A stretch of 64,000 nucleotides of DNA from the NCBI GenBank assembly GCA_964646815.1, contig CAZYFH010000008.1, positions 8,675 through 72,674 of the forward strand, in the 5' to 3' direction. Source of the stretch: an uncultured Vicinamibacteraceae bacterium (lineage in GTDB: Bacteria; Acidobacteriota; Vicinamibacteria; Vicinamibacterales; UBA8438). The notes beneath the pieces are model-generated. The model saw only the letters and a list, made by a program, of their open reading frames with translations, made no database searches and was not told the origin of the DNA. This document shows positions 6,474-63,461 of the stretch, piece by piece. Numbering within the stretch: the first letter of the stretch is position 1; the number at the start of each line of letters is the position of its first letter. Position numbers and translations under genes: made by a program.

Positions 6474-6656
6474 CAGGGTTCCTCTCGGCGGGCCAGTTCG
6501 TTTCAACGCGTAGCGCCACGGCCTTCTGTTCGGGCCGGCGGCGGCGACGTCGGCGGCCTGGGCCGTGGGTCGGAGAACGAACCTTACGTTAACCGAAGGG
6601 TACCCGTCTAATACGTCCTATGGACCACTGCCAGTCGTCGGCGAACGGTCGATCCA

Positions 6657-14934: not shown

Positions 14935-15810
14935 ATGCTGACTCGCCACATCACCGCCGTTGCCGCGGTCGCCGTCATAATCGCGACTGGCACCGCCATC
15001 GCGCGCGGGGCCGGTCGTTCCACTGGTCCCGCTTCGGAAGGGCAGCAAGGCCGCCGCCAGCGGATCTATCCGGCGCTGCAGCGTCCACCCGGTGATCCCG
15101 CCGTGATCGCGCGCGGTCGGGGACTGTACGATCTCAACTGCCGTGCCTGCCACGGCGCCGATTTGCGCGGCGGGGATCTTGGTGGGCCCAATCTGCTGCG
15201 GTCGCAGCTCGTGCTCGGCGACCGGCAAGGTGAGTCGATGTGGCCGGTCATGCGGGACGGGCAGTCGTCGCCGGGCGAAGAATCGATGCCGCCGCAGCCG
15301 TTGACCGAGGACGATGGGCGCGCGGTTGCGGAGTTCATCCACAGCATCCTCGCCTCGGCCACGCCGCAGGGCGGGCCGCCGCGGGGTGATCGCGTGGAGC
15401 TGAACGTACTGGTGGGGGACGCGGCGGCGGGCGAGGTCTACTTCGCCGCGACCTGCGCGGCCTGTCACTCGGCCGGTGGGGACCTGCAGGGGATCGCCAC
15501 CCGGATCCCGGATGCGAAGCAATTGCAGAACACCTGGGTCCGCGGCGGCGCGCGGGCCGCCACTCGACCGCCAGTCCTGGTGACGGTGACCGAGCCGTCC
15601 GGCGAGCGCGTGGAAGGCCGGCTCGATCGGCTGGACGACTTCATCGTTGTGCTCACGACGCCTGATGGCCGACATCGGTCGTTCAGCCGGCGTGGCGGCG
15701 TGCCCGCGGTGGAGGTCGATGATCCGATGTCGCGCCACACCGAGCTGCTCACCGAGTACAGCGACGCGAACATCCACGACGTCACGGCGTATCTGGCCAC
15801 GCTCAAATGA
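14935..15810 (+). CDS. Diheme c-type cytochrome, secreted
   Basis: Signal-like N-terminus and two CxxCH sites (CRACH, CAACH). The stop overlaps the start of the next gene (ATGA). Confidence 0.75.
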   Translation: MLTRHITAVAAVAVIIATGTAIARGAGRSTGPASEGQQGRRQRIYPALQRPPGDPAVIARGRGLYDLNCRACHGADLRGGDLGGPNLLRSQLVLGDRQGESMWPVMRDGQSSPGEESMPPQPLTEDDGRAVAEFIHSILASATPQGGPPRGDRVELNVLVGDAAAGEVYFAATCAACHSAGGDLQGIATRIPDAKQLQNTWVRGGARAATRPPVLVTVTEPSGERVEGRLDRLDDFIVVLTTPDGRHRSFSRRGGVPAVEVDDPMSRHTELLTEYSDANIHDVTAYLATLK

Positions 15811-17510
15811 CACGCACAAACGTCGTGCTCATCGCGTCGTTGTTAGGCGGGATTGGGGGGCTGGGTGCAGTTGTCGCGCCCGCTGTGCTCGCCGGGCAGG
15901 AGCGGGGTAGCGTCGATCCGGCCTCGCTTCTGGAGCCGCTGAAAGATTCGTGGCCCACCTACTCCGGTGACTACACCGGCCGGCGCTACAGCGGCCTCGC
16001 AGAGGTCACCACCGAGACGGTGACGCGCCTCTCGCTAGCCTGGACCAGGCAGTTGGACACCGGCATGCCGAGGCTCGACGACAGCGCGGGCAGGCGCGGC
16101 GAGACTCCCACGTTCGTCGGTGGAAGAGGGACCGGCGAGTTCACGATCGGTAGCCAGCGTATCAAGGGCAGTATCCTGCAGGTCGGCGATCTGCTATATG
16201 CGACGGCACCGGACCACGTGTGGGCGCTCGACGCCCGCGACGGCGGGGTACGCTGGCACTACTTCTGGAAGACGCGGGGAGGCCCCCACATCGGGAACCG
16301 CGGCGCGGCCTTGTGGCACGACTATCTCTTCTTTGAGACCCCCGACAACTACCTCGTCTCCCTCGACGCGCGGACCGGCGAGGAGCGATGGCACACCGAG
16401 ATCGCGAGCTTCGACGAGCAGTACTTCTCCACGATGTCGCCCATCGTGATCGGCAATCACGTGCTGGCCGGAACGGGCAACGACCTCGACGCACCGGGGT
16501 TCCTGCAGTCGTTCGATCCGGAAACAGGCGAGCGGCAGTGGCGGTTTTACACGGTCCCGATGAGTCCGGGTGACCCAGGCCTCGATACCTGGCCCAACCT
16601 GGACGCGGCACGCCATGGCGGCGGGCAGGTCTGGGTCCCCGGCGTCTACGATCCCGATACCAACTACTACATCTTCGGCACGGGCAACCCGACGCCCGGG
16701 TACACGGGTGTGGCCCGACCGGGCGACAACCTGTTCACCTGCACCCTCATGGCCGTCGATGTCGATACGGGTGAGATGGGGTGGTACTTCCAGACTTCGC
16801 CTCACGATACGCATGACTGGGACTCCGCACAGACGCCGGTCCTGATTGACGGGATCGTGAACGGCGAGCCTCGCAAGCTCGTGTCGACCGCGGCGCGAAA
16901 CGGCTACTTCTTCACCGTCGATCGCGTGACCGGCGCACACATCGCGACGAGTCGATACGGGGCCACCTCGAACTGGGCCAGCCACATCCGAGACAGCGGG
17001 TCTCCCAATCCCGATCCCGACAAAGAGGCGATCATTCCCGGTGCGCTCGTCTCTCCAGTCGAAGGAGGCGTCGCGAACTGGCAGCCGCCAGCGTTCAACC
17101 CCGACACGGGGCTCTTCTACACGCAGGAGAACAACGGGTTCAATCTTCTGTATCTGACCGACCCAGATCCGCGCGGCTCGATGGGACTGGGGGGCAAGGA
17201 TCGGGTGCCGGTCGGCTCTGGCGGAAACGCCTTTTCGGCGATCGACTACCGGACCGGTCGAACGGTCTGGCGGCATCCGTGGCCACCCGGGGGCGGCGGC
17301 GGAGCCGGCGTGCTAACGACCGCGGGTGGCGTCGTCTTCACCGGCGACGGTAGCGGGAATTTCGTGGCGTTCGACGCGGCGGATGGCCGTCTCGTCTGGC
17401 ACACGCGGATCGGCAATATCTCGAACGCGCCGGAGACGTATCTGCTCGATGGGCGCCAGCACGTCCTGGTGGCCGTCGGTGACCGCCTGTTCGCGTTCGT
17501 GCTGTACTGA
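15807..17510 (+). CDS. PQQ-dependent dehydrogenase, methanol/ethanol-family-like quinoprotein
   Basis: The N-terminal DSWPTYSGDYTGRRYSGL...LAW block and repeated propeller W motifs match the family. No vicinal Cys-Cys pair is seen. Translationally coupled to the cytochrome c gene. Confidence 0.8.
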   Translation: MTRTNVVLIASLLGGIGGLGAVVAPAVLAGQERGSVDPASLLEPLKDSWPTYSGDYTGRRYSGLAEVTTETVTRLSLAWTRQLDTGMPRLDDSAGRRGETPTFVGGRGTGEFTIGSQRIKGSILQVGDLLYATAPDHVWALDARDGGVRWHYFWKTRGGPHIGNRGAALWHDYLFFETPDNYLVSLDARTGEERWHTEIASFDEQYFSTMSPIVIGNHVLAGTGNDLDAPGFLQSFDPETGERQWRFYTVPMSPGDPGLDTWPNLDAARHGGGQVWVPGVYDPDTNYYIFGTGNPTPGYTGVARPGDNLFTCTLMAVDVDTGEMGWYFQTSPHDTHDWDSAQTPVLIDGIVNGEPRKLVSTAARNGYFFTVDRVTGAHIATSRYGATSNWASHIRDSGSPNPDPDKEAIIPGALVSPVEGGVANWQPPAFNPDTGLFYTQENNGFNLLYLTDPDPRGSMGLGGKDRVPVGSGGNAFSAIDYRTGRTVWRHPWPPGGGGGAGVLTTAGGVVFTGDGSGNFVAFDAADGRLVWHTRIGNISNAPETYLLDGRQHVLVAVGDRLFAFVLY

Positions 17511-17560: not shown

Positions 17561-19609
17561 ATGCAACGGACTGGTATGTGGATGCTGGAGATGGCCGCCG
17601 TGATCGGGCTGGCGGCGGGCCCTGTGGACGCGCAGCATGGCGCTGCCAACGGCGAATGGCGGAGCCACGGCGGTGATCTCGGCGGCACGAAGTACTCGCC
17701 GCTCGATCAGATCACGGCTGAGAATTTCAGCGACCTCGAGGTCGCGTGGCACTGGCAAACGGTCGACACGCATCTCGCGCGTGTGACCGGCGCCGGGATC
17801 GCGCTCGTGCCCGCGGACACGCTGTTCGATCTGCTCGAGGCCGAGGAACCGGATCGCTGGTCTTCGTGGGACGGAGTCACGCGGTCGCGTACGCGCCCGT
17901 CCATCCGCGCGATGGTCGCCACGCCGCTGATGGTCGACGGCGTATTGTTTCTCAGTACCGCCCTCTATCGCGCCGCGGCGATCGACGCCCGGACCGGCGA
18001 GACGTTGTGGGTGTACGACCCCCGAGCCTACGAGTCTGGTACGCCGCCCCCGCTGCCCTGGCGACATCGGGGGGTGGCGTACTGGGAGAACGACGGCGAC
18101 GCGCGGGTGGTGTGGGGCACCGGGGACGGCTTTCTCATCGCCGTTGATGCAGAGACGGGCTTGCCGGCCGAGGACTTCGGGGAGCACGGGCGCGTCGACC
18201 TCACTCAGGGGCTGCCGCGGGCCACGCGCGGCGAGCGCGACATCGTGAATCTGGTGAAGCTGTCGTCACAATCGCCCCCGATCGTCGTTCGAGACACCGT
18301 CATCGTCGGCTCGTCGATCAACGATCGCGTGTTGACGAAGGAGATGCCGCCGGGGTGGGCGCGAGCCTTCGACGTGCGGACCGGGCGGCACAAATGGGAC
18401 TTTCACACCGTGCCGCAGAGTGCCGACGAATTCGGTTCGGATACGTGGCTTGAGGAGGCGTGGCGCTACTCGGGCAACACGAACATATGGTCGATCATGA
18501 GCGGTGACGAGGAACTGGGTTTCGTCTACCTGCCCGTCGGCACACCGACCAATGACTACTACGGCGGGCATCGGCTCGGGGATAATCTCTTTGCCGAGAG
18601 TCTGGTGGCGGTCGATGTCGAGACCGGCCAACGACAGTGGCACTTTCAGATGGTGCACCACGGGTTGTGGGACTACGACAACCCGGCGGCGCCGAACCTG
18701 CTCGACATCACCATTGATGGTCGTCCGGTGAAGGCGGTTGCGCAGGTCACCAAGCAGGGGTTCGTCTACGCCTTCGACCGTGTGACGGGAGAGCCGATCT
18801 GGCCGATCGAGGAACGGCCGGTCGCGACCGACACCGATCTGGTGGGCGAGGTCGTGTCGCCGACGCAGCCGTTCCCCTCCAGGCCGGAGCCGTTTGAGTA
18901 TCAAGGGACATCGATCGACGACCTCGTCGACTTCACGCCCGAGATCCGCCAGATGGCGGTCGAGGCGGTCGAGGGGTTTCGCCTGGGGCCGCTCTACACG
19001 CCGCAGATGCTCGGTGGCACGGTGATGCGACCTTCCGTCGGCGGCGGCGCGAACTGGTCGGGCGCGGCCGTCGACCCGGAGACCGGGTATCTCTACGTGC
19101 CTTCCGCCAACCGGCACTCGACCATCCGACTGTCCGAGCCGGAGCCCGACGAGCCCGCCACCATTCGCTACGTGCGGCGGTCGCTGTCAGCCGGTCCCGT
19201 CATGCCGCGAGGACTGCCGCTCTGGAAGCCGCCCTACACACGGATGACAGCGATCGACATGACAACCGGCGAGCACGCGTGGATGAGACCCACGGGGAAC
19301 GGCGACCGAATACGCAACCATCCGATGTTGCGCGACCTCGATCTTCCTCCCGTCGGGGGTGACGCGGGCAGCAGCGGGCCGCTGCTGACCAGAACACTGC
19401 TTATCCACGCGCTGGCGGCCGGAGGCTCGAACGGGGGACCGCGGTTGGTGGCATATGACAAGGCCACCGGGGCGGAACGTGCCTCGCTCGACCTGCCGGG
19501 GGGTGCGCTCGGTGCGCCGATGACTTACTTGCTCGACGACCGGCAGTACATCGCGATCACGGTGGGCGGCGAGGTGCCCGGGCTCGTCGCGCTCACCCTG
19601 CCAGAGTGA
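17561..19609 (+). CDS. PQQ-dependent dehydrogenase (quinoprotein), paralog of 4332..6473
   Basis: Signal peptide, GEWRSHGGDLGGTKYSPLDQI...LEVAWHW, and propeller repeats throughout. 682 aa. Confidence 0.8.
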   Translation: MQRTGMWMLEMAAVIGLAAGPVDAQHGAANGEWRSHGGDLGGTKYSPLDQITAENFSDLEVAWHWQTVDTHLARVTGAGIALVPADTLFDLLEAEEPDRWSSWDGVTRSRTRPSIRAMVATPLMVDGVLFLSTALYRAAAIDARTGETLWVYDPRAYESGTPPPLPWRHRGVAYWENDGDARVVWGTGDGFLIAVDAETGLPAEDFGEHGRVDLTQGLPRATRGERDIVNLVKLSSQSPPIVVRDTVIVGSSINDRVLTKEMPPGWARAFDVRTGRHKWDFHTVPQSADEFGSDTWLEEAWRYSGNTNIWSIMSGDEELGFVYLPVGTPTNDYYGGHRLGDNLFAESLVAVDVETGQRQWHFQMVHHGLWDYDNPAAPNLLDITIDGRPVKAVAQVTKQGFVYAFDRVTGEPIWPIEERPVATDTDLVGEVVSPTQPFPSRPEPFEYQGTSIDDLVDFTPEIRQMAVEAVEGFRLGPLYTPQMLGGTVMRPSVGGGANWSGAAVDPETGYLYVPSANRHSTIRLSEPEPDEPATIRYVRRSLSAGPVMPRGLPLWKPPYTRMTAIDMTTGEHAWMRPTGNGDRIRNHPMLRDLDLPPVGGDAGSSGPLLTRTLLIHALAAGGSNGGPRLVAYDKATGAERASLDLPGGALGAPMTYLLDDRQYIAITVGGEVPGLVALTLPE

Positions 19610-48504: not shown

Positions 48505-48516
48505 GGGGGGGGGGGG
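48505..48516. repeat. G12 (C12 on the coding strand) homopolymer about 40 nt upstream of the glnE start
   Basis: Read directly from the sequence: ctac-GGGGGGGGGGGG-aggg. Confidence 0.9.
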
Positions 48517-48563
48517 AGGGCGAGTGCCCCACTCCACGGTCGCGCGGCGCGCTGTGCGCGCCT
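48513..48563. repeat. 51-nt GC-rich intergenic repeat, copy 1 (upstream of glnE)
   Basis: GGGGAGGGCGAGTGCCCCACTCCACGGTCGCGCGGCGCGCTGTGCGCGCCT matches copy 2 at 42 of 51 positions. It contains a GGCGCGC-TGT-GCGCGCC hairpin. Confidence 0.6.
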
Positions 48564-53202: not shown

Positions 53203-54744
53203 CTATCGAAATCGTCGGCAGTCGATGCCGTACTTTTTCACCTTGTAGTTGACGATCCGTTCCGTCGAGTCGAGGAGCTTTGCGGCTTTGACCCGGTTGC
53301 CGCGCGTGGTCTTGAGCGCGTCCTGCAGCAGATCCTTTTCGTAGGCGCCAACGGCGTCGGCCAGCGAGACGTTCGTGGTCGTCCCCGACGCCTCACCCGT
53401 CTGCAGGGACGGCGGTAGATGATGCGCATGAACGACGCTGCCGTCGCAGACCAGTACCGCGCGCTCGATGGCGTTCTCCAACTCCCGCACGTTGCCGGGC
53501 CAGTGATATGCCATGAACATATCGATGGCGGGGGTCGAGACGCGTTTCACGCTCTTCCCGTGCTCGACGGAGTATTTGTCGAGAAAGCTGTCGGCGAGGA
53601 GCAACACGTCGGTCTTTCGCTCCCGTAGCGGCGGAACGAAGATCGTGAACACATCGAGCCGGTAGTGGAGGTCCTCGCGAAAGGTCCCGGCGGCGATGGC
53701 CTTCTCGAGGTCGCCGTTGGTCGCAGCAATCATCCGCACATTTGCCTTGACGGAGGCGGTGCCGCCAAGACGTTCGAATTCCTTCTCCTGAAGCACGCGG
53801 AGCAGCTTGACCTGGGTCGAGAGGTTGATGTCGCCGATCTCGTCCAGGAAGACCGAGCCGCCCTCCGCGAGTTCGAACCGGCCCTTTTTTCGCGTGGCCG
53901 CGCCCGTAAAGGCGCCTTTCTCGTATCCGAACAGCTCGGATTCGATCAGGGAATCCGGGAGCGCCGCACAGCTCACCTTGACGAACGGCTTCTTGCCGCG
54001 CGGCGAGTTGTAGTGGATGGCGTGCGCGATCAGTTCTTTGCCGGTACCGGACTCGCCGCGAATCAGGACTGTCGTGTTGGTGGCGGCGACGCGTGCGATC
54101 TGCTCGTAGACTTGCCGCATCGGACCGCTCGTCCCGATTATCTGGGAAAAGTCGTAGCGCTCTTTCAGCTCTGCCTTTAGGTGGATGTTTTCGTCGAGCA
54201 GCCGCTGACGCTCGGCCTCGGCGGCCTGTTGCAGGCGAATCGCCTGACCAAACATGGTCGACACGACTCGACAGACATGTAGGTCGCGATCGTAGTTGCG
54301 CGTCTTCTCGAATGGGAAATCGACGTTGAGCGCGCCGATCGACCTCCGCTCGCCAGGGATCGGCACCGACATGAAAGTGATCTCCGAGCCTGCTCCCTGC
54401 TGCCGTCGTCCGGTCCGATGGAGAAACATCGGTTCCTGGCTGATCTGTGGCACGACGACCGGCTTGCCGCTGGCCACGACGCGCCCCGTGATCCCCTCGC
54501 CCATCTCCCATTCGGCGTGTCGGCCTGCACCGGTCAGGCCCGCGGACGCCTCGACCCGCAGCCGGCCGGTATCCGGGTCGGCGAGCACGACCGCGCTTCG
54601 AATCACGCCGTAGTCATGGTCCAGCAACTCGAGGGCACGCTGGAGACCGGCGCGCGGGCTCTGCGCCACAGTTAGCGCTTGGTTGATCTCGGCGAGGATC
54701 GCCAGCGGTCTGACGTCGTCGGCGAGCGCCTTCAGCTTCTTCAT
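53203..54744 (-). CDS. Sigma-54-dependent transcriptional activator, GAF-AAA+-HTH (NifA-like architecture, no receiver domain)
   Basis: N-terminal GAF-like region, Walker A GESGTGKE, the GAFTGA motif (EKGAFTGA) and a C-terminal Fis-type HTH (RGNRVKAAKLLDSTERIVNYKVKKYGI). The start is uncertain (TTG 54792, ATG 54774 or 54744). Confidence 0.85.
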   Translation of the reverse strand: MKKLKALADDVRPLAILAEINQALTVAQSPRAGLQRALELLDHDYGVIRSAVVLADPDTGRLRVEASAGLTGAGRHAEWEMGEGITGRVVASGKPVVVPQISQEPMFLHRTGRRQQGAGSEITFMSVPIPGERRSIGALNVDFPFEKTRNYDRDLHVCRVVSTMFGQAIRLQQAAEAERQRLLDENIHLKAELKERYDFSQIIGTSGPMRQVYEQIARVAATNTTVLIRGESGTGKELIAHAIHYNSPRGKKPFVKVSCAALPDSLIESELFGYEKGAFTGAATRKKGRFELAEGGSVFLDEIGDINLSTQVKLLRVLQEKEFERLGGTASVKANVRMIAATNGDLEKAIAAGTFREDLHYRLDVFTIFVPPLRERKTDVLLLADSFLDKYSVEHGKSVKRVSTPAIDMFMAYHWPGNVRELENAIERAVLVCDGSVVHAHHLPPSLQTGEASGTTTNVSLADAVGAYEKDLLQDALKTTRGNRVKAAKLLDSTERIVNYKVKKYGIDCRRFR

Positions 54745-54786
54745 CGTCCGTGTCTTGGTGGCCCTCGAAACCATGGCCGAAACCCG

Positions 54787-54803
54787 TGCCAAGGAACGTG
54801 CCA
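54787..54803 (-). promoter_or_regulatory. Sigma-54-like element (perfect -24, imperfect -12) upstream of the activator gene
   Basis: The minus strand reads TGGCACG-TTCC-TTGGCA. The -24 box matches the consensus TGGCACG, but the -12 box has an extra G (TTGGCA versus TTGCA), so the GG/GC spacing is off by one. Confidence 0.2.
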
Positions 54804-54822: not shown

Positions 54823-55000
54823 CTAGTGACCTGTCTCGGGTGAATCAAGAGCGCTCGCCGGGCAGGGCATCCCGCGATGGCCGGCGCGGGACCATGCGTC
54901 AGCGCGGTCACAGACGGTGTGTTTGCTCCCTCGTCGCACTTTGTCAGCCGGGCGCCGCGTGCCGGTGAACACTACTGATTCACCCGATACAGGCCACTAG
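54823..55000 (-). mobile_element. MITE-like non-autonomous element, copy A (178 bp, ~25-bp terminal inverted repeats)
   Basis: The ends are CTAGTGACCTGTCTCGGGTGAATCA ... TGATTCACCCGATACAGGCCACTAG (23 of 25 TIR match). The reverse complement aligns to copy B at about 152 of 177 positions with one indel. There is no ORF, and the terminal CTAG contains the gltD TAG stop. Confidence 0.7.
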
Positions 55001-56442
55001 ACGGGCGCGGGTAGCCCGGACGAGCCCATGAGATAGGCATCGATTCCGCGCGCGGCGCTCCGCCCTTCCGCGATGGCCCACACGATCAGCGATTGACCGC
55101 GCTGCATGTCGCCAGCCGTGAAGATCGCCGGAACGCTGGTCATCCAGTTCGTATCCCGCCACACGTTGCCCCGATCGGTCAGTCGCACCCCGAGCTCGGT
55201 CAGCATGCCTGGCCGCTCGGGACCCAGGAACCCCATCGCCAGCAGCACGAGGTCGGCGTCAACCTGAAACTCGCCGCCCGCGACCGGATCGAACACCGGC
55301 CGGCCGTTCCGACTTGTCATCTCGACCCTTGTTCCGTAGAGCTTCTCCACCCGGCCGTTCTGCGCACCGCTGAATCGCTGTGTCGACACGGCGTAGCGTC
55401 GATCGCCGCCTTCCTCGTGAGCGGCCGAGGCGCGGAAGACCTGGGGCCACGTCGGCCAGGGATTGTCCTCGGCCCGCGAGTCGGGCGGGCGCGGCAGCAG
55501 CTCGAACTGGGCGATCGATCGAGCGCCCTGACGGTGCACGGTGCCGAGGCAGTCCGCGCCGGTGTCTCCGCCGCCGATAATGACAACATGTTTGTCCTGG
55601 GCCGTGATCGCGCTCTCCTCCGGGACCACGTCCCCTTCGCAGCGGTGGTTCTGCTGCGTTAGATAGTCCATCGCGAAATGGATGCCCGCGAGCTCGCGTC
55701 CCGGCACGTTGAGGTCTCGCGGCCAGCCGGCGCCTCCGGCGAGCAACATCGCGTCGTGCCCGCGGCGGATGCGCTCGGCCGGGGTGTCGACTCCCACGTT
55801 GACGCCCGTCTGGAAACGGACACCCTCCTCCTCCAGGATCTGGAGGCGTCGGTTAAGGAACCGCTTCTCCATCTTGAACTCGGGGATGCCATAGCGCAGG
55901 AGCCCGCCGATACGGTCGGCTTTCTCGAAGACCGTGACAGTGTGGCCCGCGCCATTGAGCTGGTCGGCGGCCGCGAGGCCGGCTGGGCCCGAGCCGACGA
56001 TGGCCACCGTCTTGCCGGTGCGCGCGTCGGGCGGCGTCGCGCGCACCCACCGTTCCTCGAACGCCCTCTCGATGATCGCCAGCTCGATCGATTTGATCGT
56101 GACCGGCTCGCGGTCGATCGCGAGCACGCACGACCCCTCGCACGGCGCCGGGCACAACCGTCCGGTCCACTCGGGAAAGTTGTTGGTCTTGTGCAGGCGG
56201 TCGATGGCCGCCCGCCATTTGCCCCGATACACGAGGTCGTTCCAGTCGGGAATCAGGTTGCCGAGGGGGCATCCGTCGTGGCAGAAGGGAATGCCGCAAT
56301 CCATGCAGCGCGCCCCCTGCGCACGGAGGTCTGGTGCGACATACGGCAGATAGACTTCGCGCCAGTCGGTGACTCGCCTTGCCACGGGGCGGGTCGGCGC
56401 CGTCTGACGTTCGATCTCGAGAAAGCCCTTCAACTTGCCCAT
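54997..56442 (-). CDS. gltD: Glutamate synthase small subunit (NADPH)
   Basis: Fe-S Cys clusters (CMDCGIPFCHDGCPLGN...CPAPCEGSC), FAD/NAD Rossmann motifs (VAIVGSGPAGLAAA, VVIIGGGDTGADC) and a C-terminal GRSAARGIDAYLMG. Confidence 0.9.
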   Translation of the reverse strand: MGKLKGFLEIERQTAPTRPVARRVTDWREVYLPYVAPDLRAQGARCMDCGIPFCHDGCPLGNLIPDWNDLVYRGKWRAAIDRLHKTNNFPEWTGRLCPAPCEGSCVLAIDREPVTIKSIELAIIERAFEERWVRATPPDARTGKTVAIVGSGPAGLAAADQLNGAGHTVTVFEKADRIGGLLRYGIPEFKMEKRFLNRRLQILEEEGVRFQTGVNVGVDTPAERIRRGHDAMLLAGGAGWPRDLNVPGRELAGIHFAMDYLTQQNHRCEGDVVPEESAITAQDKHVVIIGGGDTGADCLGTVHRQGARSIAQFELLPRPPDSRAEDNPWPTWPQVFRASAAHEEGGDRRYAVSTQRFSGAQNGRVEKLYGTRVEMTSRNGRPVFDPVAGGEFQVDADLVLLAMGFLGPERPGMLTELGVRLTDRGNVWRDTNWMTSVPAIFTAGDMQRGQSLIVWAIAEGRSAARGIDAYLMGSSGLPAPV

Positions 56443-56451
56443 GCGTCTCGT

Positions 56452-59400
56452 CTACTGCGCGCCGATCAGCTCGGCAAACTCCGGTTCCCGCGACTCGGCG
56501 CGCGCCCGAGCTTCGGCGGCCAGCACCCGCTTGTAGTCGCGCGGCATGACTTTGACGAAGCGCCCGCGGATCGACGCCCACTGATCGACCACCCGTTTCG
56601 CGACCGCACTGCCCGTGAGCCGCGCGTGGCGCGTGAGGAGCCCGCGCACGAACTCGTCGTCGTCATCCTCGAGCGATTCGAGGTCGACCATGCCAGCATT
56701 GCAGCGCCGCTCGAAGTCGCACGCCGCATCGAGGACGTATGCGATGCCGCCACTCATTCCTGCGGCGAAGTTCCGCCCTGTGGGGCCGATGATGACGACG
56801 CGGCCACCGGTCATGTACTCGCAGCCGTGGTCACCAACTGCCTCCACGACGGCATGGGCTCCGCTGTTGCGAACGGCGAACCGTTCACCGGCCACGCCCC
56901 GCACGAACGCCTCGCCGCCGGTCGCCCCATACAGCGCGACGTTGCCGATGATGATGTTGTCTTCGGCCGCGAAGGTGGAACGGGCCGGCGGGTAGAGGAC
57001 CAGCCGGCCCCCGGACAGCCCCTTGCCGAAGTAGTCGTTCGCGTCACCCTCGATGGTCAACGAGACTCCGCGCGGCACGAACGCCCCAAAGCTCTGGCCG
57101 GCTGAGCCCGTGAACTTGATGCGGATCGTGTCGTTGGGTAGGCCCGCGGCCCCCCAACGGCGGGTGATGGCGGAGCCCAGCATCGTGCCGACTGTCCGGT
57201 TGACGTTGCGGATCGGCAAGTTGATCTCAACCGGCTCACGCCGGTCCAGCGCCGCCGCACTCATGTCGATGAGCGTGGCATCGAGTGCTCGGTCGAGCCC
57301 GTGGTCCTGCGGTCGCACGCACCGGCGACCCACCGAGTAGGGCACCTTTGGCTGGTACAGGATGGAGGTCAGATCCAGCCCCCGCGCCTTCCAGTGGTCG
57401 ATCGCGCCGTGCATGTCGAGGCGGTCGGCGCGTCCGATCATCTCGTCCATCGTGCGGAACCCGAGGCTGGCCATCAGCTCTCGGATCTCCTCGGCCACGA
57501 ACCAGAAATATTGCTCCACGAACTCGGCCGTGCCGGTGAAGTGCTTGCGAAGCTCGGGGTTCTGGGTCGCGACACCCACGGGACACGTATCGAGGTGGCA
57601 GACACGCATCATGATGCATCCGGAGACGACCAGGGGCGCCGTTGAGAAGCCGTACTCCTCAGCGCCGAGCAGGGCAGCTACCACGACGTCACGGCCAGTC
57701 TTCATCTGGCCATCCACCTGCACCACGATCCGGTCGCGCAGATTATTCAGCACGAGGACCTGCTGCGTTTCGGCCAGCCCGAGCTCCCACGGTACTCCGG
57801 TGTGCTTGATGCTCGTGAGCGGCGACGCTCCCGTGCCGCCGTCATGACCCGAGATCAACACGACATCCGAATGGGCCTTCGCCACCCCGGCGGCGACCGT
57901 CCCAACGCCCACTTCGGCCACGAGCTTGACGTGAATCCGGGCATCCGGGTTCGCGTTCTTCAGGTCGTGGATCAACTGCGCCAAGTCTTCGATCGAATAG
58001 ATGTCGTGATGCGGAGGCGGTGAGATTAGGCCCACGCCGGGCGTCGAGTAGCGCACCTTCGCAATCCACGGGTAGACCTTGAAGCCGGGCAGCTGTCCGC
58101 CTTCGCCTGGCTTGGCGCCCTGCGCCATCTTGATCTGGAGGTCGTCCGAGTTGACGAGATACTCGCTCGTCACGCCGAAGCGGCCCGACGCGACCTGCTT
58201 GACCGCGCTCCGGCGCAGATCGCCGTTCACGTCTGGCGTGTATCGTGCCGGGTCTTCGCCGCCTTCACCGGTGTTGGATTTGCCGCCGAGGCGGTTCATC
58301 GCGATTGCCAGCGTCTCGTGCGCTTCCGCGCTGATCGACCCGTAGGACATCGCTCCGGTCGCGAACCGGGGGAAGATTGCCTCCGCTGGTTCCACCTCAT
58401 CGAGCGGCACCGGCTTCGCCGCAGGCTTCAGGTCGATCAGTCCGCGGAGCGTCGCCCGTGTGCGACTCTGGTCGTTCACCAGCCCGGCGTACTCTCGATA
58501 CACGTCGTGCTGCCCGCTCCGGCTGGCGTGCTGGAGCTTGAAGACGGTCTCCGGGTTGAAGAGGTGGTATTCGCCATCTCGCCGCCACTGATACTCGCCG
58601 CCCGTGTCGAGTTCGTCGTCCACCGGGCCACGCACCGGGAACGCCCGCACATGCCGCCGGATGACCTCCTCGGCCACCGTGTCGATGCCGATGCCGCCGA
58701 CGCGTGACGCAGTCCAGGTGAAGTAGCGGTCGACAAAGGCCTGGTCCAGACCGATCGCCTCGAAAATCTGTGCCCCGCGGTAACTCTGCAGGGTCGAAAT
58801 GCCCATCTTCGACATCACCTTGAGCACACCCTTCGTGCACGCCTTGATGTAGTGCCGGATGGCCTGGGTGAGCTCGAGATCCTGGAGTTCGCCGTCCAAC
58901 AGGAGCTCCGCGATCGTCTCGAAGGCAAGGTACGGGTTGACGGCGGCGGCGCCGTAGCCGACCAGCAGCGCCATGTGGTGGCACTCACGCGCCTCCCCCG
59001 TTTCGATGATCAACGCGCACTTGGTTCGGCTGCCTTCACGCACGAGGTGGTGGTGCACGCCCGCTGTGGCCAGGAGTGCCGGGATGGGGGCATGCGCGCG
59101 ATCCATGCCACGATCCGAAAGCACGATCATGGTCGCGCCGTCCGCCACCGTCGCGCTGGCCTTTCGGCATAACGCCGTCATCGCCGGTTCGAGTCCCGCG
59201 GTGCCAGCGCCAGGGTCGAACAGCATGTCGAGAGTGGCAGCCCGGAACGCGGGGTCGGTCAGATGACGCAGCTTCGCAAGGTCGTCGTTGTCCAGGACCG
59301 GATCGTCGATCCTAATGTGGTGACACGACGCTGCCTCGGGTGCCAGGAGATTGCTCTCGGCGCCGAGCATCGATCCCATGTCGGTGACCAGCTCCTCACG

Positions 59401-61047
59401 GATCGCGTCCAGCGGAGGGTTCGTCACCTGCGCGAACAACTGCTTAAAGTAGTCATAGAGTAGCCGCGAGCGGTCCGAGAGCACCGCCAGGGCCGTGTCG
59501 GTGCCCATGGAGCCGAGCGGCTCGGCTCCATGCTGAGCCATCGGGCCGATGAGAATCCTGAGGTCCTCCTCGGTGTAACCAAACGCGCGTTGGCGCCGGC
59601 GCACGGTGTCGTGCGACGGCGGCGGCGCGTACGGCGCGGCCGGGACGTCGTCGAGGTGGACGAGTTCCGCGTCGAGCCATGCGGCGTACGGGTGCTCGGC
59701 CGCGAGCTCTCGCTTGATCTCTTCGTCATCGATGATCCGGCCCTGCGCCGTGTCGACGAGGAAGATGCGTCCGGGGTGCAGCCGTTCCTTGATCCGCACG
59801 TTCTCCGGTGGGACATCCAGCACGCCGACTTCAGAGGCCATGATGACCATGTCGTCGGTCGTCACGTAGTACCGCGAGGGACGTAGGCCGTTACGGTCGA
59901 GCACCGCGCCAATCACTGTCCCGTCAGTGAACGCGATGGATGCCGGTCCGTCCCACGGCTCCATGAGCGAGGCGTGATACTGGTAGAACGCGCGGCGCTC
60001 CGGCGACATCGATTCATGGTTCGACCACGGTTCCGGGATCATCATCAGCATGGCATGGGCGAGCGGCCGGCCGGTCTGCACGAGGAACTCGAGGACGTTG
60101 TCAAACGTGGCGGTGTCGCTTTGGCCCTCCTTGATCAGCGGAAACAGCTTGGCGAGGTCGTCGCCGAACAGCTCTGAGCGACACAGCGTCTCGCGCGCCC
60201 GCATCCAATTGATGTTGCCGCGCAGCGTGTTGATCTCGCCGTTGTGCGCGACATAGCGGTAGGGGTGGGCCAGCGGCCATGACGGGAATGTGTTGGTACT
60301 GAACCGCGAGTGCACGAGGGCAAGCGCCGATTCGACATCGGGGTCGGCGAGATCCGGGAACATCGTCTCGAACTGATCGGCGATAAGCATGCCCTTATAG
60401 ACAATGGTGTTCGACGAAAGGCTGGCAATGTAAAACAGATGGCGTTCGGCGAGCTCGAGGCCGTCGACGTCAAGCGTCACGCGTCTCCGGATGACGTATA
60501 GGTCGCGCTCGAACCGGGCGCGTGGGTCGGGCACATTGGCGCGCGCGGGACTGCGGCCGATGATGATCTGCCGAATCACCGGCTCGCCACTCCGGGCCGT
60601 CGCGCCGAGTGGCGTGTCGTCCGTCGGCACGTCTCGCCAACCGAGGAACTGGTGGCCCTCGTCGGTCACGATGCGAGCAAAGAGCTCCTCGATGTGACGG
60701 CGCTCCGACTGATCCTGTGGCAAGAACACCATCCCGACCCCGTACGCTCCAGCCTCGGGGAGGTCGATACCGAGCGTGCCGGCGGCCTTCTTCAGGAACT
60801 TGTGCGGCAGTTGCAAGAGCATGCCTGCCCCGTCCCCGGTGTTCGCCTCGCAGCCGCAGGCACCCCGATGCGAGAGGTTGAGGACAACTTCGAATGCCTG
60901 CCGCACCAGCTTGTGCGACCGATTACCTGCGATGTTGACGACGAAACCGACACCGCACGAATCGTGCTCGTTCCGCGGATCGTACAGACCCTGCGCCGGC
61001 GGCAGTGCGCCGCGGAGTCCGCGGGGGAGAGGAGGTGGCCCGCTCAT
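56452..61047 (-). CDS. gltB: Glutamate synthase large subunit
   Basis: The amidotransferase N-terminus has the HDSCGVGFV nucleophile Cys after a ~30-aa propeptide. FMN/3Fe-4S and GXGXG domains are present. ATG at 61047 (the ORF track start 61182 overlaps lysR). Confidence 0.95.
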
Positions 61048-61052
61048 CTGCG

Positions 61053-62063
61053 TCAACTCGCGCCCCGGTTGGAGACGGCGGCGTGCGATGGGCCCGCGCG
61101 CCCGGACTCCGAGGGCGGCACGTGTCGCGCGGCCGGCCCGCGCAGCTGGCGGCCGACCGCGCCGGCAACGCCAGGAGCGCACAGTACCTTGATGAACTCG
61201 GTGACGGCTGGGTTGAGGCGTCGCTTGCGGCGATGGATAATGTTCAGGGGGCGGACGAACGGCGTATCTCCGGCGGCGGTCTGCAACCCGATCTTCACGA
61301 GCGTGCGTCGCTGCACCTCGCGTCTCAGGGTCGCTTCGGGGAGGATGGCGACGCCGGCGCCGTCCTCGATTGCTTGCTTGATGTTCTCGATGTTGTCGAA
61401 CTCGGCCGCGACCTGAACATCGGCGTCATGGCGTCGGAGAAAACGGTCTATCTCCCGGCGCACTGGCAATCCCCGGTCGAACGTGACGAATGCCTCGCCG
61501 GCGAGCTCTCGCGGTCCGAGCGCCGCCTTCTCCTGCGCGAACCGATGCGTGGGCAGGCAAGCGACCACCATCGTCTGGTTTTGCCAAGGGATTGCCGTAA
61601 GCTCGCGGCCCGGGGTCGCAAACGAGATGAGCCCGAGATCCGATTGGTCGTTGAGCACCCGCATGTAGATCTGATCCGGATGCATGTATTCGAGGTCGAC
61701 CCCGACACCGGGCACCGATGCGCGGAACTGGTCGACGTACTGGCTGAGATCGTGTAGCCGGACGGAGTAGATGGATGCGAGCCGGACTGTGTAACCGGAG
61801 GGGTGCTTCCGCCGCTGCACCGCCTCTTCCAGCTCGTGATACCGGTCGACGATCTCCTGACAGCCCTTGAAGAACAACTTGCCCTCTGGCGTCAGCAACC
61901 ATGGGCGCTTGGAGCGGTCGATGAGCTGCGTCCCGAGTCGTTTCTCTATCTGGCGCACGGCTTGGCTGGCCGCCGACTGGCTCACCGAGTTGGCCATCGC
62001 GCCGCGTGAGAAGCTCTGGTGGCGAACCACATCGCAGAAAATATTGAGGGCCTCAAGGTGCAT
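61053..62063 (-). CDS. LysR-family transcriptional regulator
   Basis: N-terminal wHTH ([51 protein letters not shown]) plus a LysR substrate-binding fold. It ends 5 nt before the gltB start on the same strand. Confidence 0.85.
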
Positions 62064-62071
62064 GGCCAGCC

Positions 62072-62100
62072 ACTTTACCCACCAGGGTCACTAATGGCAA
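62072..62100 (-). promoter_or_regulatory. Candidate sigma70 promoter for lysR (near-leaderless)
   Basis: The minus strand reads TTGCCA, a 17-nt spacer, TAAAGT, then 8 nt and the ATG. Confidence 0.3.
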
Positions 62101-62225
62101 GTCGTCTAGATATTAATGTTTATGATTCAGTGTAGTGCCGCGCCACGGGCCGATCTAGAGATCGTTAAATTCTTGTAACATATTTACTATCATGCACTTA
62201 CGTATTTCTTGAGGAGCATTTAAAG
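62101..62225. promoter_or_regulatory. AT-rich island (two AT-rich blocks) in an otherwise GC-rich genome
   Basis: The sequences tagatattaatgtttatgattcagtgtag and gatcgttaaattcttgtaacatatttactatcatgcacttacgtatttcttgaggagcatttaaag lie upstream of lysR. They contain T-N11-A-type dyads but no clear consensus box. Confidence 0.35.
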
Positions 62226-62610
62226 TGGGGCGAGTGCCCGAACTTAAGTGGCCAACGTGCCAACGGATGTGGCGGCCTGACCCCGGACTAGGTCCGTTGA
62301 CAACGAGGTCGTCGAGGCGCAGTTGGGTGTTGCCCGTGCCCAGAGGAGAAAGATGCGCGGTTGTTCGGGTCGGTTGGATTCCGTTGGCCAGTGGTCGAGA
62401 CCCCGTTGGGCCAACGGCCTGGCGTTCACCTGCGGTCGCGCGCCCTACCGGGCGGCCGTCACGGTGCCACGCCTGTTTGGCCGCACGCTACTCTCTCGAC
62501 GACAGCTTCTGAGCGCCGTCCAAAGTGCCGAACGCGCAGCCCACGTGCCCAGCCGCAGAGTCCCGCCGTTCGCACGATCTCGAGCGTGAGATAGTCGGAA
62601 AACCCCACCG

Positions 62611-62787
62611 CTAGTGGCCTGGATCGGGTGGATCGGTAGTGGTCACCGGCGCGCGACGCCCGGCTGACAAGGCGCGACGAGGGAGGAGACGCACCGTCTG
62701 TGAATACGCTGATGCATGGTCCAGCGCCGGCCATCGCTGGATGCCCCGCCCGGTGAGGCTCTCGATTCACCTGATACAGGCCACTAT
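62611..62787 (+). mobile_element. MITE-like non-autonomous element, copy B (177 bp)
   Basis: The ends are CTAGTGGCCTGGATCGGGTGGATCG ... CGATTCACCTGATACAGGCCACTAT. It is ~85% identical to the reverse complement of copy A. The terminal CTA (62784-62786) is the TAG stop of the adjacent minus-strand gene. Confidence 0.7.
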
Positions 62788-63368
62788 CCGCCGAGCCTGC
62801 GAAGAAGGGTATCCAAGGGTGCGGCTTGAGGCACGGTGACGCTGACGGCGAGGCGGTCGTCTGCCTCGGCGTTTCTCGCGACTTCGCACGACTGCCCATC
62901 GAATAACGTGGTCGCAAACGCGAGCAGTGCCGTCTCCAGCGTGAGTGCGGCCTCATCGGTGTTCGGCGCCAGCAGCCGGTCGTTTGCGATGAGCTCAATC
63001 TCGCTACTGCGAAACCTGACCGGCGCGTCGAAGGTCGTCTCCGTCTCGAGTAGCCGCGCGGCGCCGAATAGCATCCGACACACCGCTCGAAGCCGATCCG
63101 CGAACGACCCATCGAGCGGCTGTTTCCTGGTGTAGACGAAACCGGGCCGCCCGCCCGCGTCATCGATCCCGTAGTTGCCCTCGTGCGCGACCAGTAGGAC
63201 ACGGGGGCCGTCGGTGAGGTGCGTGTAGTCCGCGACGTCGATCAGGAGGCCGTCGACGGCGCCGGTCTGGATCCAGCGATGAAAGACCGGAACGCACGCG
63301 TGAGGCGACACGACCGCCGCCGAATCCACGAAGAGCTTGAGCCCGAAGCGTTGCAGTTGCTCGACCAT
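62784..63368 (-). CDS. Hypothetical protein (194 aa)
   Basis: ATG at 63368 (MVEQLQRFGLKLFVDS...). The upstream ORF extension is Arg/Pro-rich junk. No family recognised, and the stop codon lies inside MITE copy B. Confidence 0.5.
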   Translation of the reverse strand: MVEQLQRFGLKLFVDSAAVVSPHACVPVFHRWIQTGAVDGLLIDVADYTHLTDGPRVLLVAHEGNYGIDDAGGRPGFVYTRKQPLDGSFADRLRAVCRMLFGAARLLETETTFDAPVRFRSSEIELIANDRLLAPNTDEAALTLETALLAFATTLFDGQSCEVARNAEADDRLAVSVTVPQAAPLDTLLRRLGG

Positions 63369-63410
63369 ATTTAAACGGGGCTTCACCCCGACCCCCTGCG
63401 GGCGCTGCGT

Positions 63411-63461
63411 GGGGACCCCGAGAGCCCCACTCCGCGCCCGCGAGGCGTGCTGTGCGCGCCT
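63411..63461. repeat. 51-nt GC-rich intergenic repeat, copy 2 (upstream of the 62784..63368 gene)
   Basis: GGGGACCCCGAGAGCCCCACTCCGCGCCCGCGAGGCGTGCTGTGCGCGCCT has the same orientation and a similar distance from the downstream start codon as copy 1. Confidence 0.6.

Follow-up and report, generated by a model that had tools for sequence, protein, structure and literature searches.

The two inverted repeats found in the window, by which we mean the whole stretch of 64,000 nucleotides that was analysed, belong to a well-known class of elements, in which they form a new family: a non-coding MITE of soil Acidobacteria that inserts at CTAG. Filled and empty insertion sites, together with copies dispersed over other genomes, confirm that both repeats are copies of a mobile, non-autonomous DNA transposon. 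The best explanation of their movement, to which we assign a probability of roughly 70%, is mobilization by an IS5/IS1182-type, CTAG-specific transposase. This would be a DDE enzyme acting in trans, which would integrate the element at the palindrome CTAG and leave a CTAG on both sides. The type of enzyme is suggested by the commonest sister subfamily, which carries the ends of an IS1182-like insertion sequence (IS) that is likewise specific for CTAG.

The first-pass annotation had described the two segments as inverted repeats of each other at about 85% identity, with imperfect terminal inverted repeats (TIRs) of about 25 bp and no ORF, each adjoining a minus-strand gene at its 3' end, and our analysis agrees with this description (Table 1). 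The global alignment of copy A (54823-55000) with the reverse complement of copy B (62611-62787) shows 153 identical columns out of 178 and one indel, and a repeat search of the window retrieves the two copies as a gap-free inverted pair of 147 nt with 87% identity. The similarity between the copies ends precisely at the CTAG flanks. The TIRs, of about 24 nt, match at 22 of 24 positions in copy A and at 20 of 24 in copy B, and the 24-nt end GATTCACCCGATACAGGCCACTAG occurs four times in the window at no more than three mismatches, compared with 0.00 expected from 100 shuffles. A single long hairpin is predicted for each copy (z = -5.5 and -7.0). No gene is called inside either copy in the gene table of L013, an independent metagenome scaffold, and no Pfam-bearing ORF is present. 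As L013, which is 99.97% identical to the window, carries both copies, and as a second metagenome scaffold (L014) also has copy A, the copies are not assembly artefacts.

Table 1. Positions of the two MITE copies, of their parts and neighbouring genes (window coordinates), and of the insertion sequences compared with them (locus coordinates).
Feature	Position	Strand	Remarks
MITE copy A (178 nt with the CTAG of both ends; type-1 arms)	54823..55000	+ (= "F" orientation of core)	CM score 145 bits on minus strand
Left TIR of copy A, CTAG-TGACCTGTCTCGGGTGAATC	54823..54846	+	2 mismatches to consensus end
Right TIR of copy A, GATTCACCCGATACAGGCCA-CTAG	54977..55000	+	CTA reads as the gltD stop TAG on the opposite strand
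Conserved core of copy A, common to elements with other arm types	54860..54960	+	nhmmer core profile, E = 3.9e-18
MITE copy B (177 nt; type-1 arms), opposite in orientation to copy A	62611..62787	-	
One TIR of copy B, CTAG flank	62611..62634	-	
Other TIR of copy B	62764..62787	+	flank CTAT on + strand, A-TAG on gene strand
Conserved core of copy B	62651..62752	-	nhmmer core profile, E = 1.4e-17
gltD, glutamate synthase small subunit	54997..56442	-	TAG stop 54997-54999 within CTAG target of copy A; empty site in L022
Conserved hypothetical gene (200 aa in the L013 gene calls)	62784..63386	-	TAG stop 62784-62786 within target of copy B
GAF / sigma-54 activator / HTH_8 regulator, directly downstream of copy A	53203..54774	-	context, outside the element
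IS1182-like IS	L005:6391-7857		CTAG flanks included
IS1182-like IS	L028:17085-18551		CTAG flanks included
IS630 element	L028:16059-17088		NF033545, 129 bits; ends CTAAAGCGCTTTTCA; one element examined

The repeats had been regarded as a non-autonomous family on first inspection, and empty sites in relatives had been proposed as a check. Such sites were found. The relative L022, the GltD of which is 89% identical, has the same gene order as the window (NirB-like / hypothetical / LysR / gltB / gltD / sigma-54 activator) and neither copy. Its empty sites read GGTC TAG CGCAG at the end of gltD and GGCGGC TAG CTCGG at the end of the hypothetical gene, with a single CTAG at each site, where the window shows CTAG/ATAG ... 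CTAG around each copy. This comparison shows that copy A entered the stop codon of gltD, and copy B that of the neighbouring hypothetical gene, after the split from the L022 lineage. In the more distant L023, L024, and L025, both copies are absent and the stop codons are TGA or TAA.

The family extends well outside the window, as had been expected of it. Type-1 copies, that is, those with the arms of the window copies, are present at unrelated loci in at least five MAGs and seven metagenome contigs, and the family as a whole ranges over Vicinamibacterales/Acidobacteriota MAGs and soil metagenomes. Shortened type-1 relatives also exist, comprising internally deleted versions of 59-86 nt and truncated copies, and core-less derivatives of 42-86 nt occur naturally. 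With a size of 177-178 nt, TIRs, no transposase gene, filled and empty sites, and dispersed copies, the two repeats have the characteristics of MITEs. One locus, L010, was left out of the alignment and of the statistics, as its flanks are perfectly palindromic at a contig end and probably reflect a fold-back assembly artefact. Matches in L001 (Pseudomonas), L003 (Dehalococcoidales), and L008 (Trueperaceae) are lone ends with neither partner nor core and were attributed to chance. BLASTN searches with copy A gave just chance 40-nt matches in eboE genes of Streptomyces among plasmids and no match among phages, and viral contigs scanned with the end pattern and with the core pattern gave 0 matches.

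The position of both copies on stop codons calls for an explanation. The first-pass annotation proposed that the element donates the TAG stop of the neighbouring gene. The corresponding genes in L022 already end with C-TAG at the same codon, and the TAG of gltD and of the hypothetical gene, as read from these empty sites, was the pre-existing target, regenerated on insertion rather than donated. The proposed link between the CTAG target and stop codons is nevertheless real: in 7 of 14 complete copies, a coding-like ORF or a called gene has the flanking TAG as its stop. The idea that CTAG sites are themselves concentrated at stop codons was not retained, as only 2 of the 42 CTAGs of the window are stops in a crude gene set. 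The stop-codon association more likely results from strict CTAG targeting combined with the loss of gene-breaking insertions. When CTAG is in register with a reading frame, its only possible reading is a C-ending codon and then the stop TAG, which places such sites at gene ends. An insertion there would restore ...C TAG and leave the protein unchanged, whereas insertions at the remaining intragenic CTAGs would break the gene and be lost. This would explain how, in a high-GC genome, a small repeat can recur precisely at stop codons, the observed copies being the survivors at ...C TAG gene ends.

With regard to the transposase, the most informative copies are those of the commonest arm type, type 3. 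Their ends are identical at 18 of 18 positions to the ends of a 1.46-kb IS1182-like IS (type-3 arm at L028:19476-19652, compared with the IS at L005:6391-7857). In addition to the two copies listed in Table 1, this IS was found in L030-L045, with lengths of 1462-1466 bp. Its TIRs are CAGCCCGTGGTGAAAGTC / CAGCCCGTGGTTAAAAGG, and it encodes an intact transposase of about 460 aa with DUF772 and DDE_Tnp_1 domains, the best NCBIfam match of which is IS1182. The transposase scores 157-166 bits with NF033551 (IS1182; cut-off 270) and 72-79 bits with NF033581 (IS5; cut-off 140), in both cases below the cut-off. By these profiles, the partner transposase is IS1182-like, and not a certified member of IS1182 or IS5. 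The sampled copies of the IS (n=15) have CTAG flanks at independent sites, with two single-flank exceptions, and the inner base next to the CTAG flank is invariant. CTAG flanks also serve as targets repeatedly: a type-1 mini-MITE adjoins the IS at the CTAG of the latter (L005), and tandem copies of the IS have one CTAG in common (L031/L034).

The ends of the type-1 elements show a modest similarity to those of this IS, with 5 of 8 positions identical, a 4-nt insertion, and then 6 of 6 in an alignment made by eye. No transposase with matching ends is present in the window, as stated by the first-pass annotation. The search that it recommended for a full-length IS with the same ends retrieved only pairs no more than 177 nt apart or single ends in 185,579 species genomes, and no full-length IS with type-1 ends in the metagenome scan or in 447 kb of retrieved loci; the IS found is that of the type-3 sister. 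In a protein search for a type-1 partner, all transposases among the matches listed shared 83% identity or more with the type-3 partner. Relatives of the IS1182-like transposase were not detected in the viral contigs searched for them.

Mobilization by an IS630/Tc1-mariner-type transposase, the other type put forward by the first-pass annotation, appears rather unlikely. Such an enzyme would target NTAN, preferring CTAG, and would duplicate TA; the element proper would begin with G (GTGGCC...GGCCAC), and this G, following the duplicated TA, would restore TAG. Most MITE copies are flanked by CTAG on both sides, and the variants differ at the outermost base, namely in copy B (ATAG), L009a (CTAA), L022c (TTAG...CTAA), and L007 (TTAG), with the G and C immediately inside, next to the element, being invariant. 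A 2-bp duplication of TA, which is an IS630 signature, suits some flank pairs better than a 4-bp one, the variants of copy B, L009a, and L022c slightly favouring TA, and L022c would require no mutation if its target was TTAA with duplication of TA. Furthermore, IS630-family elements are present in these genomes (L028:16059-17088 and L033), and RUP with IS630-Spn1 provides a precedent (PMC2229807). As CTAG is a palindrome, duplications of TA and of CTAG are indistinguishable, and as identical CTAG flanks, again next to an invariant inner base, are found for the IS1182-like IS, the two types of transposase are not separated by the flank pattern. The sole IS630 element examined has ends unrelated to any arm type, and the sister subfamily is linked to the IS1182-like IS by 18 of 18 terminal bases. 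The IS5-type part of the earlier proposal, in its IS1182-like form, is thus favoured over the IS630 part by the type-3 ends, which are those of a CTAG-flanked IS.

The hallmark of the family is a structured, conserved core of about 100 nt, which is found with at least five arm types, the window copies being "type 1". The family is consequently defined by this core and not, as first suggested, by the 25-bp ends. The elements measure about 165-180 bp, and their inverted ends pair over nearly the whole length, closing on the core. Across subfamilies the arms are far more variable than the core, which is the opposite of what simple recognition by a transposase would predict. It could be argued from this that the selected unit is the structured core with its long closing stem, as RNA or single-stranded DNA, and that the arms merely need to pair. 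On this view, the element would act as a hairpin of the REP/REPIN-like or regulatory kind, either spread by a structure-recognizing enzyme or retained by the host, to serve in mRNA processing or stability or to make insertions in operons harmless. Several features agree with such a role. The arms vary with compensating changes on both sides (38 of 62 pairs). Taken by itself, the core has 95% of its cells paired and double changes in 10 of 28 pairs, the observed value being reached by 0 of 500 shuffles; there is covariation in the apical hairpin CATAC/GTATG and conservation of two tandem G-A internal loops. In 8 of 9 copies, one strand gives the more stable fold, and copies in L026, L027, and L028 occupy tight gaps of a few bases between same-strand genes, such as thiO / thiS.

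Nevertheless, we consider it very unlikely that structure, and not transposition by a DDE enzyme, accounts for the family. The compensation in the arms is not diagnostic, because both inverted ends bind one transposase and must covary anyway, and the covariation was measured on just 9 related sequences, from which the structure itself was derived. The core lies in either orientation with respect to the gene upstream (5 forward, 2 reverse), and the type-3 ends match those of a classical DDE insertion sequence. Rfam 15 gave no match at the gathering threshold over the whole window, and permissive scans of three copies gave sub-threshold matches only, mainly to generic long-hairpin miRNA-precursor models. 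As defined in PMC3733652, REP/REPIN elements spread via RAYT are 20-40-nt palindromes with a GTAG or CGTC tag and no target duplication. The present elements are 165-180 nt long, have ends reading CTAGTGG, bear neither tag, and repeat CTAG at both ends.

Other possible functions of the sequence were examined and rejected. No consensus promoter or terminator signal is present in copy A or B. An in-frame ATG...TAG of 15 aa occurs in several copies on one strand, and many copies have an open frame of about 50 aa on the other, but an element-encoded peptide was dismissed because the frames differ from copy to copy and show non-conservative substitutions; they are open by chance only. By our own tally, G-U pairs occur in 19 columns and the mirror A-C mismatches in 11; this strand asymmetry is not significant and, with the mixed orientation relative to upstream genes, was not accepted as evidence for RNA.

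The core, in which the two tandem G-A internal loops flank the covarying apical hairpin within the long closing stem, could be a functional module in its own right, which would persist for this reason while the ends are exchanged or diverge into at least five classes, although we regard this as quite unlikely. In a testable form of the idea, pairing would start from the first base, the folded mRNA would rejoin the flanks, and insertions between tightly coupled genes would be harmless. In L027, the element puts 180 nt between the Shine-Dalgarno sequence GAGG at the end of thiO and the start codon of thiS.

That the repeats are immobile, as a conserved 3' UTR or terminator or as the ends of a segmental duplication or composite transposon carrying lysR-gltB-gltD, might seem plausible from their position after genes of one nitrogen-assimilation cluster and on either side of lysR-gltBD in inverted orientation, but the empty sites and the copies dispersed elsewhere refute it: neither copy is present in relatives that agree in gene order and orientation (L022 and L025, which also excludes a composite transposon or an inversion of lysR-gltBD between the copies), the similarity of A and B stops exactly at the CTAG flanks and is not that of one segmental duplication, copies in other genomes sit at unrelated loci, and no terminator-like feature is present.

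Based on these results, a MITE superfamily and its very abundant IS1182-like partner are documented in the Vicinamibacteria, a dominant yet little-studied group of soil bacteria. The architecture of this superfamily, one conserved core with many kinds of ends, is unusual and is open to functional testing. There is also a consequence for annotation: a search with the translated core showed that public databases contain more than 200 "hypothetical proteins" (206 entries), 47-95 aa in length, which are spurious translations of copies of the element.

Several known repeats resemble this family. The Correia/NEMIS elements of Neisseria and the ERIC/IRU elements of enterobacteria are also 100-170 nt long with a terminal TA, form a long end-to-end hairpin, and in either orientation frequently share a transcript with the gene upstream (PMC2229807). 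In contrast to the present family, they are A+T-rich and unrelated in sequence, their transposases are unknown, and their ends are conserved rather than a shared core. RNA-level effects, namely RNase III cleavage and altered mRNA stability, have been demonstrated for them, whereas here such effects would be hypothetical. Correia ends also begin with TA-TAGTGG. RUP of Streptococcus pneumoniae, which derives from IS630-Spn1 and is the textbook case of trans-mobilization in bacteria, is likewise a non-coding repeat (of about 100 nt) with TIRs matching an IS and TA-containing targets (PMC2229807). The partner of RUP belongs to the IS630 family, whereas the sole partner identified here, that of the sister subfamily, is IS1182-like, and the nearby IS630 ends are unrelated. 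MITEPsy1 / ISPsy2 of Pseudomonas syringae shares with our elements a non-autonomous nature and a CTAG target, and its TIRs resemble those of an IS5-family element; MITEPsy1 inserts at either CTAG or YTAA, the target being duplicated, and differs in its length of 100 nt and its 18-nt TIRs of unrelated sequence (GGAAGGTCTGAAAAAGCC), a structured conserved core not being described (PMC3189936). Finally, MITEPye1 of Paracoccus yeei, a precedent for a MITE derived from the IS1182 family, comes from another phylum, is unrelated in sequence and is of low copy number (1-3 per chromosome), and neither CTAG or stop-codon targeting nor one core among several TIR classes is reported for it; like the family described here, it is small, non-coding, and intergenic and forms a hairpin; its TIRs resemble those of the IS1182 family, and short direct repeats, reported as 4 bp, lie at its flanks (PMC11578231).

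Copies A and B are reverse complements of each other, with 153 of 178 columns identical and one indel in a global alignment. The repeat search of the window returned a gap-free stretch of 147 nt (87%) for this pair, and the likeness breaks off exactly at the element ends. Each copy exhibits terminal inverted repeats (TIRs) of ~24 nt, complementary at 22/24 and 20/24 positions, whose end sequence is present four times in the window at ≤3 mismatches versus none expected. Folded end to end, each copy gives one long hairpin (z-scores −5.5 and −7.0). The first-pass annotation had described this inverted pair, its TIRs and its position at the 3' ends of minus-strand genes, and all three are borne out as written. 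The element has the defining features of a bacterial MITE: it is small, lacks a transposase, has inverted ends with the target repeated on either side, occurs in dispersed copies, and its sites are found both filled and empty. The earlier MITE reading was right in outline.

A metagenome scaffold that is 99.97% identical to the window across 19 kb (L013) carries both copies, and copy A was found again in a second scaffold (L014). In L022, a relative with the same gene order and a GltD 89% identical to that of the window, neither copy is present, which provides the empty sites that the first-pass annotation had proposed to look for. The gltD site reads ...CCGGTC TAG CGCAG... in L022, 51 nt ahead of the activator gene, and ...CCCGTC TAG [TGGCC...GGTCAC TAG] TACC... 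in the window. The site at the hypothetical gene reads ...CTCGGCGGC TAG CTCGG... and ...CTCGGCGGA TAG [TGGCC...GGCCAC TAG] CGGTG..., respectively. The last residue of both proteins is at the same position with or without the element. The copies are also absent from three more distant relatives (L023-L025), where the stops are TGA or TAA. By parsimony, two insertions occurred in the window lineage, each into a pre-existing C-TAG. The copies had been proposed to donate the TAG stops, but the empty sites already end in C-TAG at the same residue, so the stop is regenerated. The same gene order and orientation in L022 without the copies exclude a composite transposon, an inversion and a segmental duplication, the last of which had been named beforehand, in combination with a lack of further copies, as evidence against a MITE.

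CTAG is five-fold rarer in the window than expected from base composition (42 observed versus 207 expected). TAG is a common stop: of 40 genes in a crude set based on GC3, 17 end in it, and it is preceded by C in just two of these 17, one of them gltD. CTAG sites are therefore not concentrated at stop codons, contrary to what had been supposed. Among 14 complete copies, 7 are placed so that a coding-like ORF or called gene terminates at their flanking TAG; these genes include DUF1800 in L026, thiO in L027 and, in L028, one that is OMP-like. This is most simply explained by strict targeting of CTAG together with purifying selection: insertions at CTAG within genes would destroy the gene, while insertion at ...C TAG would rebuild the stop and leave the protein unaltered. 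In another locus (L021), a 567-aa open frame enters a single type-1 end and stops at the terminal TAG (...DSPDTGH*), which suggests that an element fragment now provides the last residues and the stop. In L027, a type-3 copy separates thiO from thiS. The thiO stop, a GAGG Shine-Dalgarno sequence and the thiS ATG would otherwise all be inside 17 nt (TGTGAGGTCTAGTCATG); with the copy present, GAGG and the ATG are 180 nt apart unless the hairpin folds.

Both copies lie within a minus-strand nitrogen-assimilation cluster, in the order NirB-like reductase, hypothetical gene, copy B, LysR regulator, gltB, gltD, copy A, GAF/sigma-54 activator, glnD, PII, glnA and glnE. With a third element upstream of the NirB-like gene, the cluster comprises three copies within ~11 kb. 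A sigma-54-type promoter-like motif between copy A and the activator-gene start is retained in L022 as TTGGCACGTTCTTTGGAA and has its canonical form in L024 as TGGCACGAACATTGCT. From the position and conservation of this motif, copy A sits between the gltD stop and the putative promoter, leaving the latter undisturbed. Two further repeats were observed in the window. A 51-nt direct repeat (82% identical), intergenic at both positions in the minus-strand gene array, is unrelated to the MITE and could be a shared regulatory site. The second-longest inverted repeat (80 nt, 80%) simply reflects the similarity of opposite-strand PQQ-dependent dehydrogenase paralogues.

Positions of the elements and associated features. 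Positions are those of the window unless preceded by an L handle, which denotes a genome, MAG or metagenome locus.
Feature	Position	Strand	Remarks
Copy A	54823-55000		Adjoins 3' end of gltD
gltD stop	54997-54999	minus	
Copy B	62611-62787		Adjoins 3' end of conserved hypothetical gene
Hypothetical gene stop	62784-62786	minus	~200 aa
Third superfamily element	L013:423-585 (near 65860-66020)		Type-3 arms; ~1.9 kb past window right end
Sigma-54-type motif	54787-54803	minus	TGGCACGTTCCTTGGCA; activator-gene start at 54774
51-nt direct repeat	48513-48563		glnA/glnE gap, after run of ~11 G
51-nt direct repeat	63411-63461		NirB-like/hypothetical gap
80-nt inverted repeat	5257-5336 / 18743-18822		
PQQ-dependent dehydrogenase	4332-6506	minus	PF01011
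PQQ-dependent dehydrogenase	17561-19609	plus	PF01011
PQQ-dependent dehydrogenase	15807-17510	plus	PF01011
Arm type 1	Copies A and B, L004, L009, L012		CTAG-TGGCCTGTATCGGGTGAATC
Arm type 2	L011, L015; variant in L026		CTAG-TGTCCTGTAACCGTGATTCG
Arm type 3	L022, L026, L027, L028, L013:423-585		CTAG-[C/G]AGCCCGTGGTGAAAGTCC
Arm type 4	L009		CTAA-GGACCCTGACCGGAATAAGG
Arm type 5	L015		
Half element	L007:3468-3512; L011:2375-2420		Single type-1 arm
Minimal derivatives	L005:3522-3567; L002:5146-5206; L005:7854-7927; L019:712-797		Type-3 and type-1 arms
Palindromic copy	L010:1276-1441		
Open frame ending in element	L021:56-1759	minus	
Copy between thiO and thiS	L027:9991-10175		
Type-3 MITE	L028:19476-19652		
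IS630-family element	L028:16059-17088; L033 (~1040-1990)		Ends CTAAAGCGCTTTTCA

When one genome per species was searched with a degenerate end pattern, true copies were limited to MAGs of Vicinamibacterales and other Acidobacteriota, and the window (G+C ~65%) is assigned to a Vicinamibacterales-like acidobacterium. These copies measure 59, 74, 164-168 and 177 nt. In addition, a half element stands at an orthologous position beside the same neighbouring gene in two Vicinamibacterales MAGs and represents an old truncated copy or else a retained fragment. Three matches in other phyla, each consisting of a single end, were discarded as chance. Seven more contigs came from the metagenome scan, several of them carrying truncated copies. 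Copies beyond the window, as expected by the first-pass annotation, do exist. Searches of viral contigs, plasmids and phages gave no copies, and those of Rfam no match; the annotation had recognised no named family. The element profile also matches the central ~100 nt, or core, within elements bearing other arms. The family is defined by its core, and the type-1 copies of the window are a minor branch. On the complete 6.6-Mb chromosome OZ252227.1, the end-pattern scan detected no more than three type-1 loci; element density in unselected fetched DNA is roughly 1 per 25-50 kb (estimated on ~150 kb). A protein-database search with the translated open frame through the core matched at least 206 "hypothetical proteins" of 47-95 aa (P0121-P0240 and others, e.g. 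MKVPLHSTGDASRLAALLLGRIFPIFSLVAPCQPGASPVSVRRGTFTTGS). These are spurious ORFs on element copies, that is, gene-calling artefacts, and their abundance indicates that the family is widespread in soil metagenomes. By manual reading, ~38 of 54 fetched sequences are type 3, their stop being the terminal TAG or TAA of the element. Minimal derivatives of ~46-86 nt including flanks were also observed, with little beyond two inverted ends, the core deleted and CTAG flanks still present. In L010, where a short MAG contig ends, an element with ~20 nt of flanks forms a perfect palindrome, probably a fold-back assembly artefact due to the hairpin.

For nine full elements with four arm types (1 to 4), RNAalifold returned one long stem of 62 pairs, 38 of which still pair through changes on both sides; the inverted ends of any transposon must covary, which limits what the arms can tell, and the structure was derived from the same nine related sequences that scored it. 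When only the core is considered, 95% of cells are paired and 10 of 28 pairs show double changes, values reached by 0 of 500 shuffles; slid controls fall to 22-43% paired. The apical hairpin covaries (CATAC/GTATG, CATAG/CTATG, AATAC/GTATT, CAAAT/ATTTG) and lies between two conserved tandem G-A internal loops. The core has no uniform orientation with respect to the upstream gene (5 to 2), and no promoter- or terminator-like signals were found in the copies. Bacterial MITEs usually form end-to-end hairpins (PMC2229807). The conservation of one core across many end types is the one feature that could prove more than routine.

With regard to type-3 arms, a partner was found in 1.46-kb elements in contig L028 and MAG contig L005, encoding a ~460-aa transposase with DUF772 and DDE_Tnp_1 domains, intact in L005 and frameshift-split in the low-coverage L028. 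Its best NCBIfam match is IS1182 (157-166 bits, under the curated 270), and IS5 models score 72-79 bits, under 140. The protein database holds more than 8000 relatives, all ≥83% identical to the query among the 120 matches listed. Fifteen further loci with two of these transposases represent ~12 distinct insertion sites, as some repeat one site. The IS there measures 1462-1463 bp and has ends CAGCCCGTGGTTAAAAGG. CTAG lies to either side of it, the only departures being one flank with CTAA and one with CTCA. The ends of the L005 IS (CAGCCCGTGGTGAAAGTC) are the same as the arm of a type-3 MITE in L028 at 18 of 18 bases, and a second variant in L031 has ends GAGCCCGTGGTAAAAGTCGCC that match other type-3 arms. 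Beyond the ends, IS and MITE have no sequence in common, and the core is absent from the IS. The CTAG flanks are repeated landing sites, which gives nested and tandem insertions: a type-1 mini-MITE adjoins the L005 IS, one CTAG is common to two IS copies in L031/L034, and a two-ORF IS630-family element (NF033545) occupies the TA of the CTAG adjoining an IS1182-like element, with the same junction in L028 and L033. The first-pass annotation had considered the IS630 or IS5 type; an IS1182/IS5-like origin is supported by the type-3 arms, while the IS630 lean is not, the ends of that element being unrelated to those of the MITE.

For the type-1 copies of the window, the likeness to the IS ends, judged by eye, is suggestive only. 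The first block (TGGCCTGT versus CAGCCCGT) is identical at 5/8 positions, all three differences being transitions, and the second (GGTGAA) is identical, with a 4-nt insertion (ATCG) between the blocks. Type-1 and type-3 copies have CTAG flanks, core and host genomes in common. Most economically, type 1 would be mobilised by a transposase related to this IS1182-like one. Neither the scans of genomes and metagenomes nor the 447 kb of fetched loci yielded a full-length type-1 element. As CTAG is palindromic, filled and empty sites look the same under TA or CTAG duplication; flank variants on the outermost base in copy B (ATAG), L009a (CTAA) and L022c (TTAG...CTAA) lean slightly towards TA.

No named family or Rfam model was found for the element, and a literature search on MITEs in Acidobacteria gave no description of this family. 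Useful outcomes are the account of how the target relates to stop codons and the recognition of the annotation artefact. In mechanism, the closest known systems are IS1182- or IS5-derived MITEs, namely MITEPye1, of IS1182 type with 4-bp repeats (PMC11578231), and MITEPsy1, of IS5 type with CTAG or YTAA duplicated (PMC3189936). In architecture, the closest are the Correia, ERIC and RUP elements.
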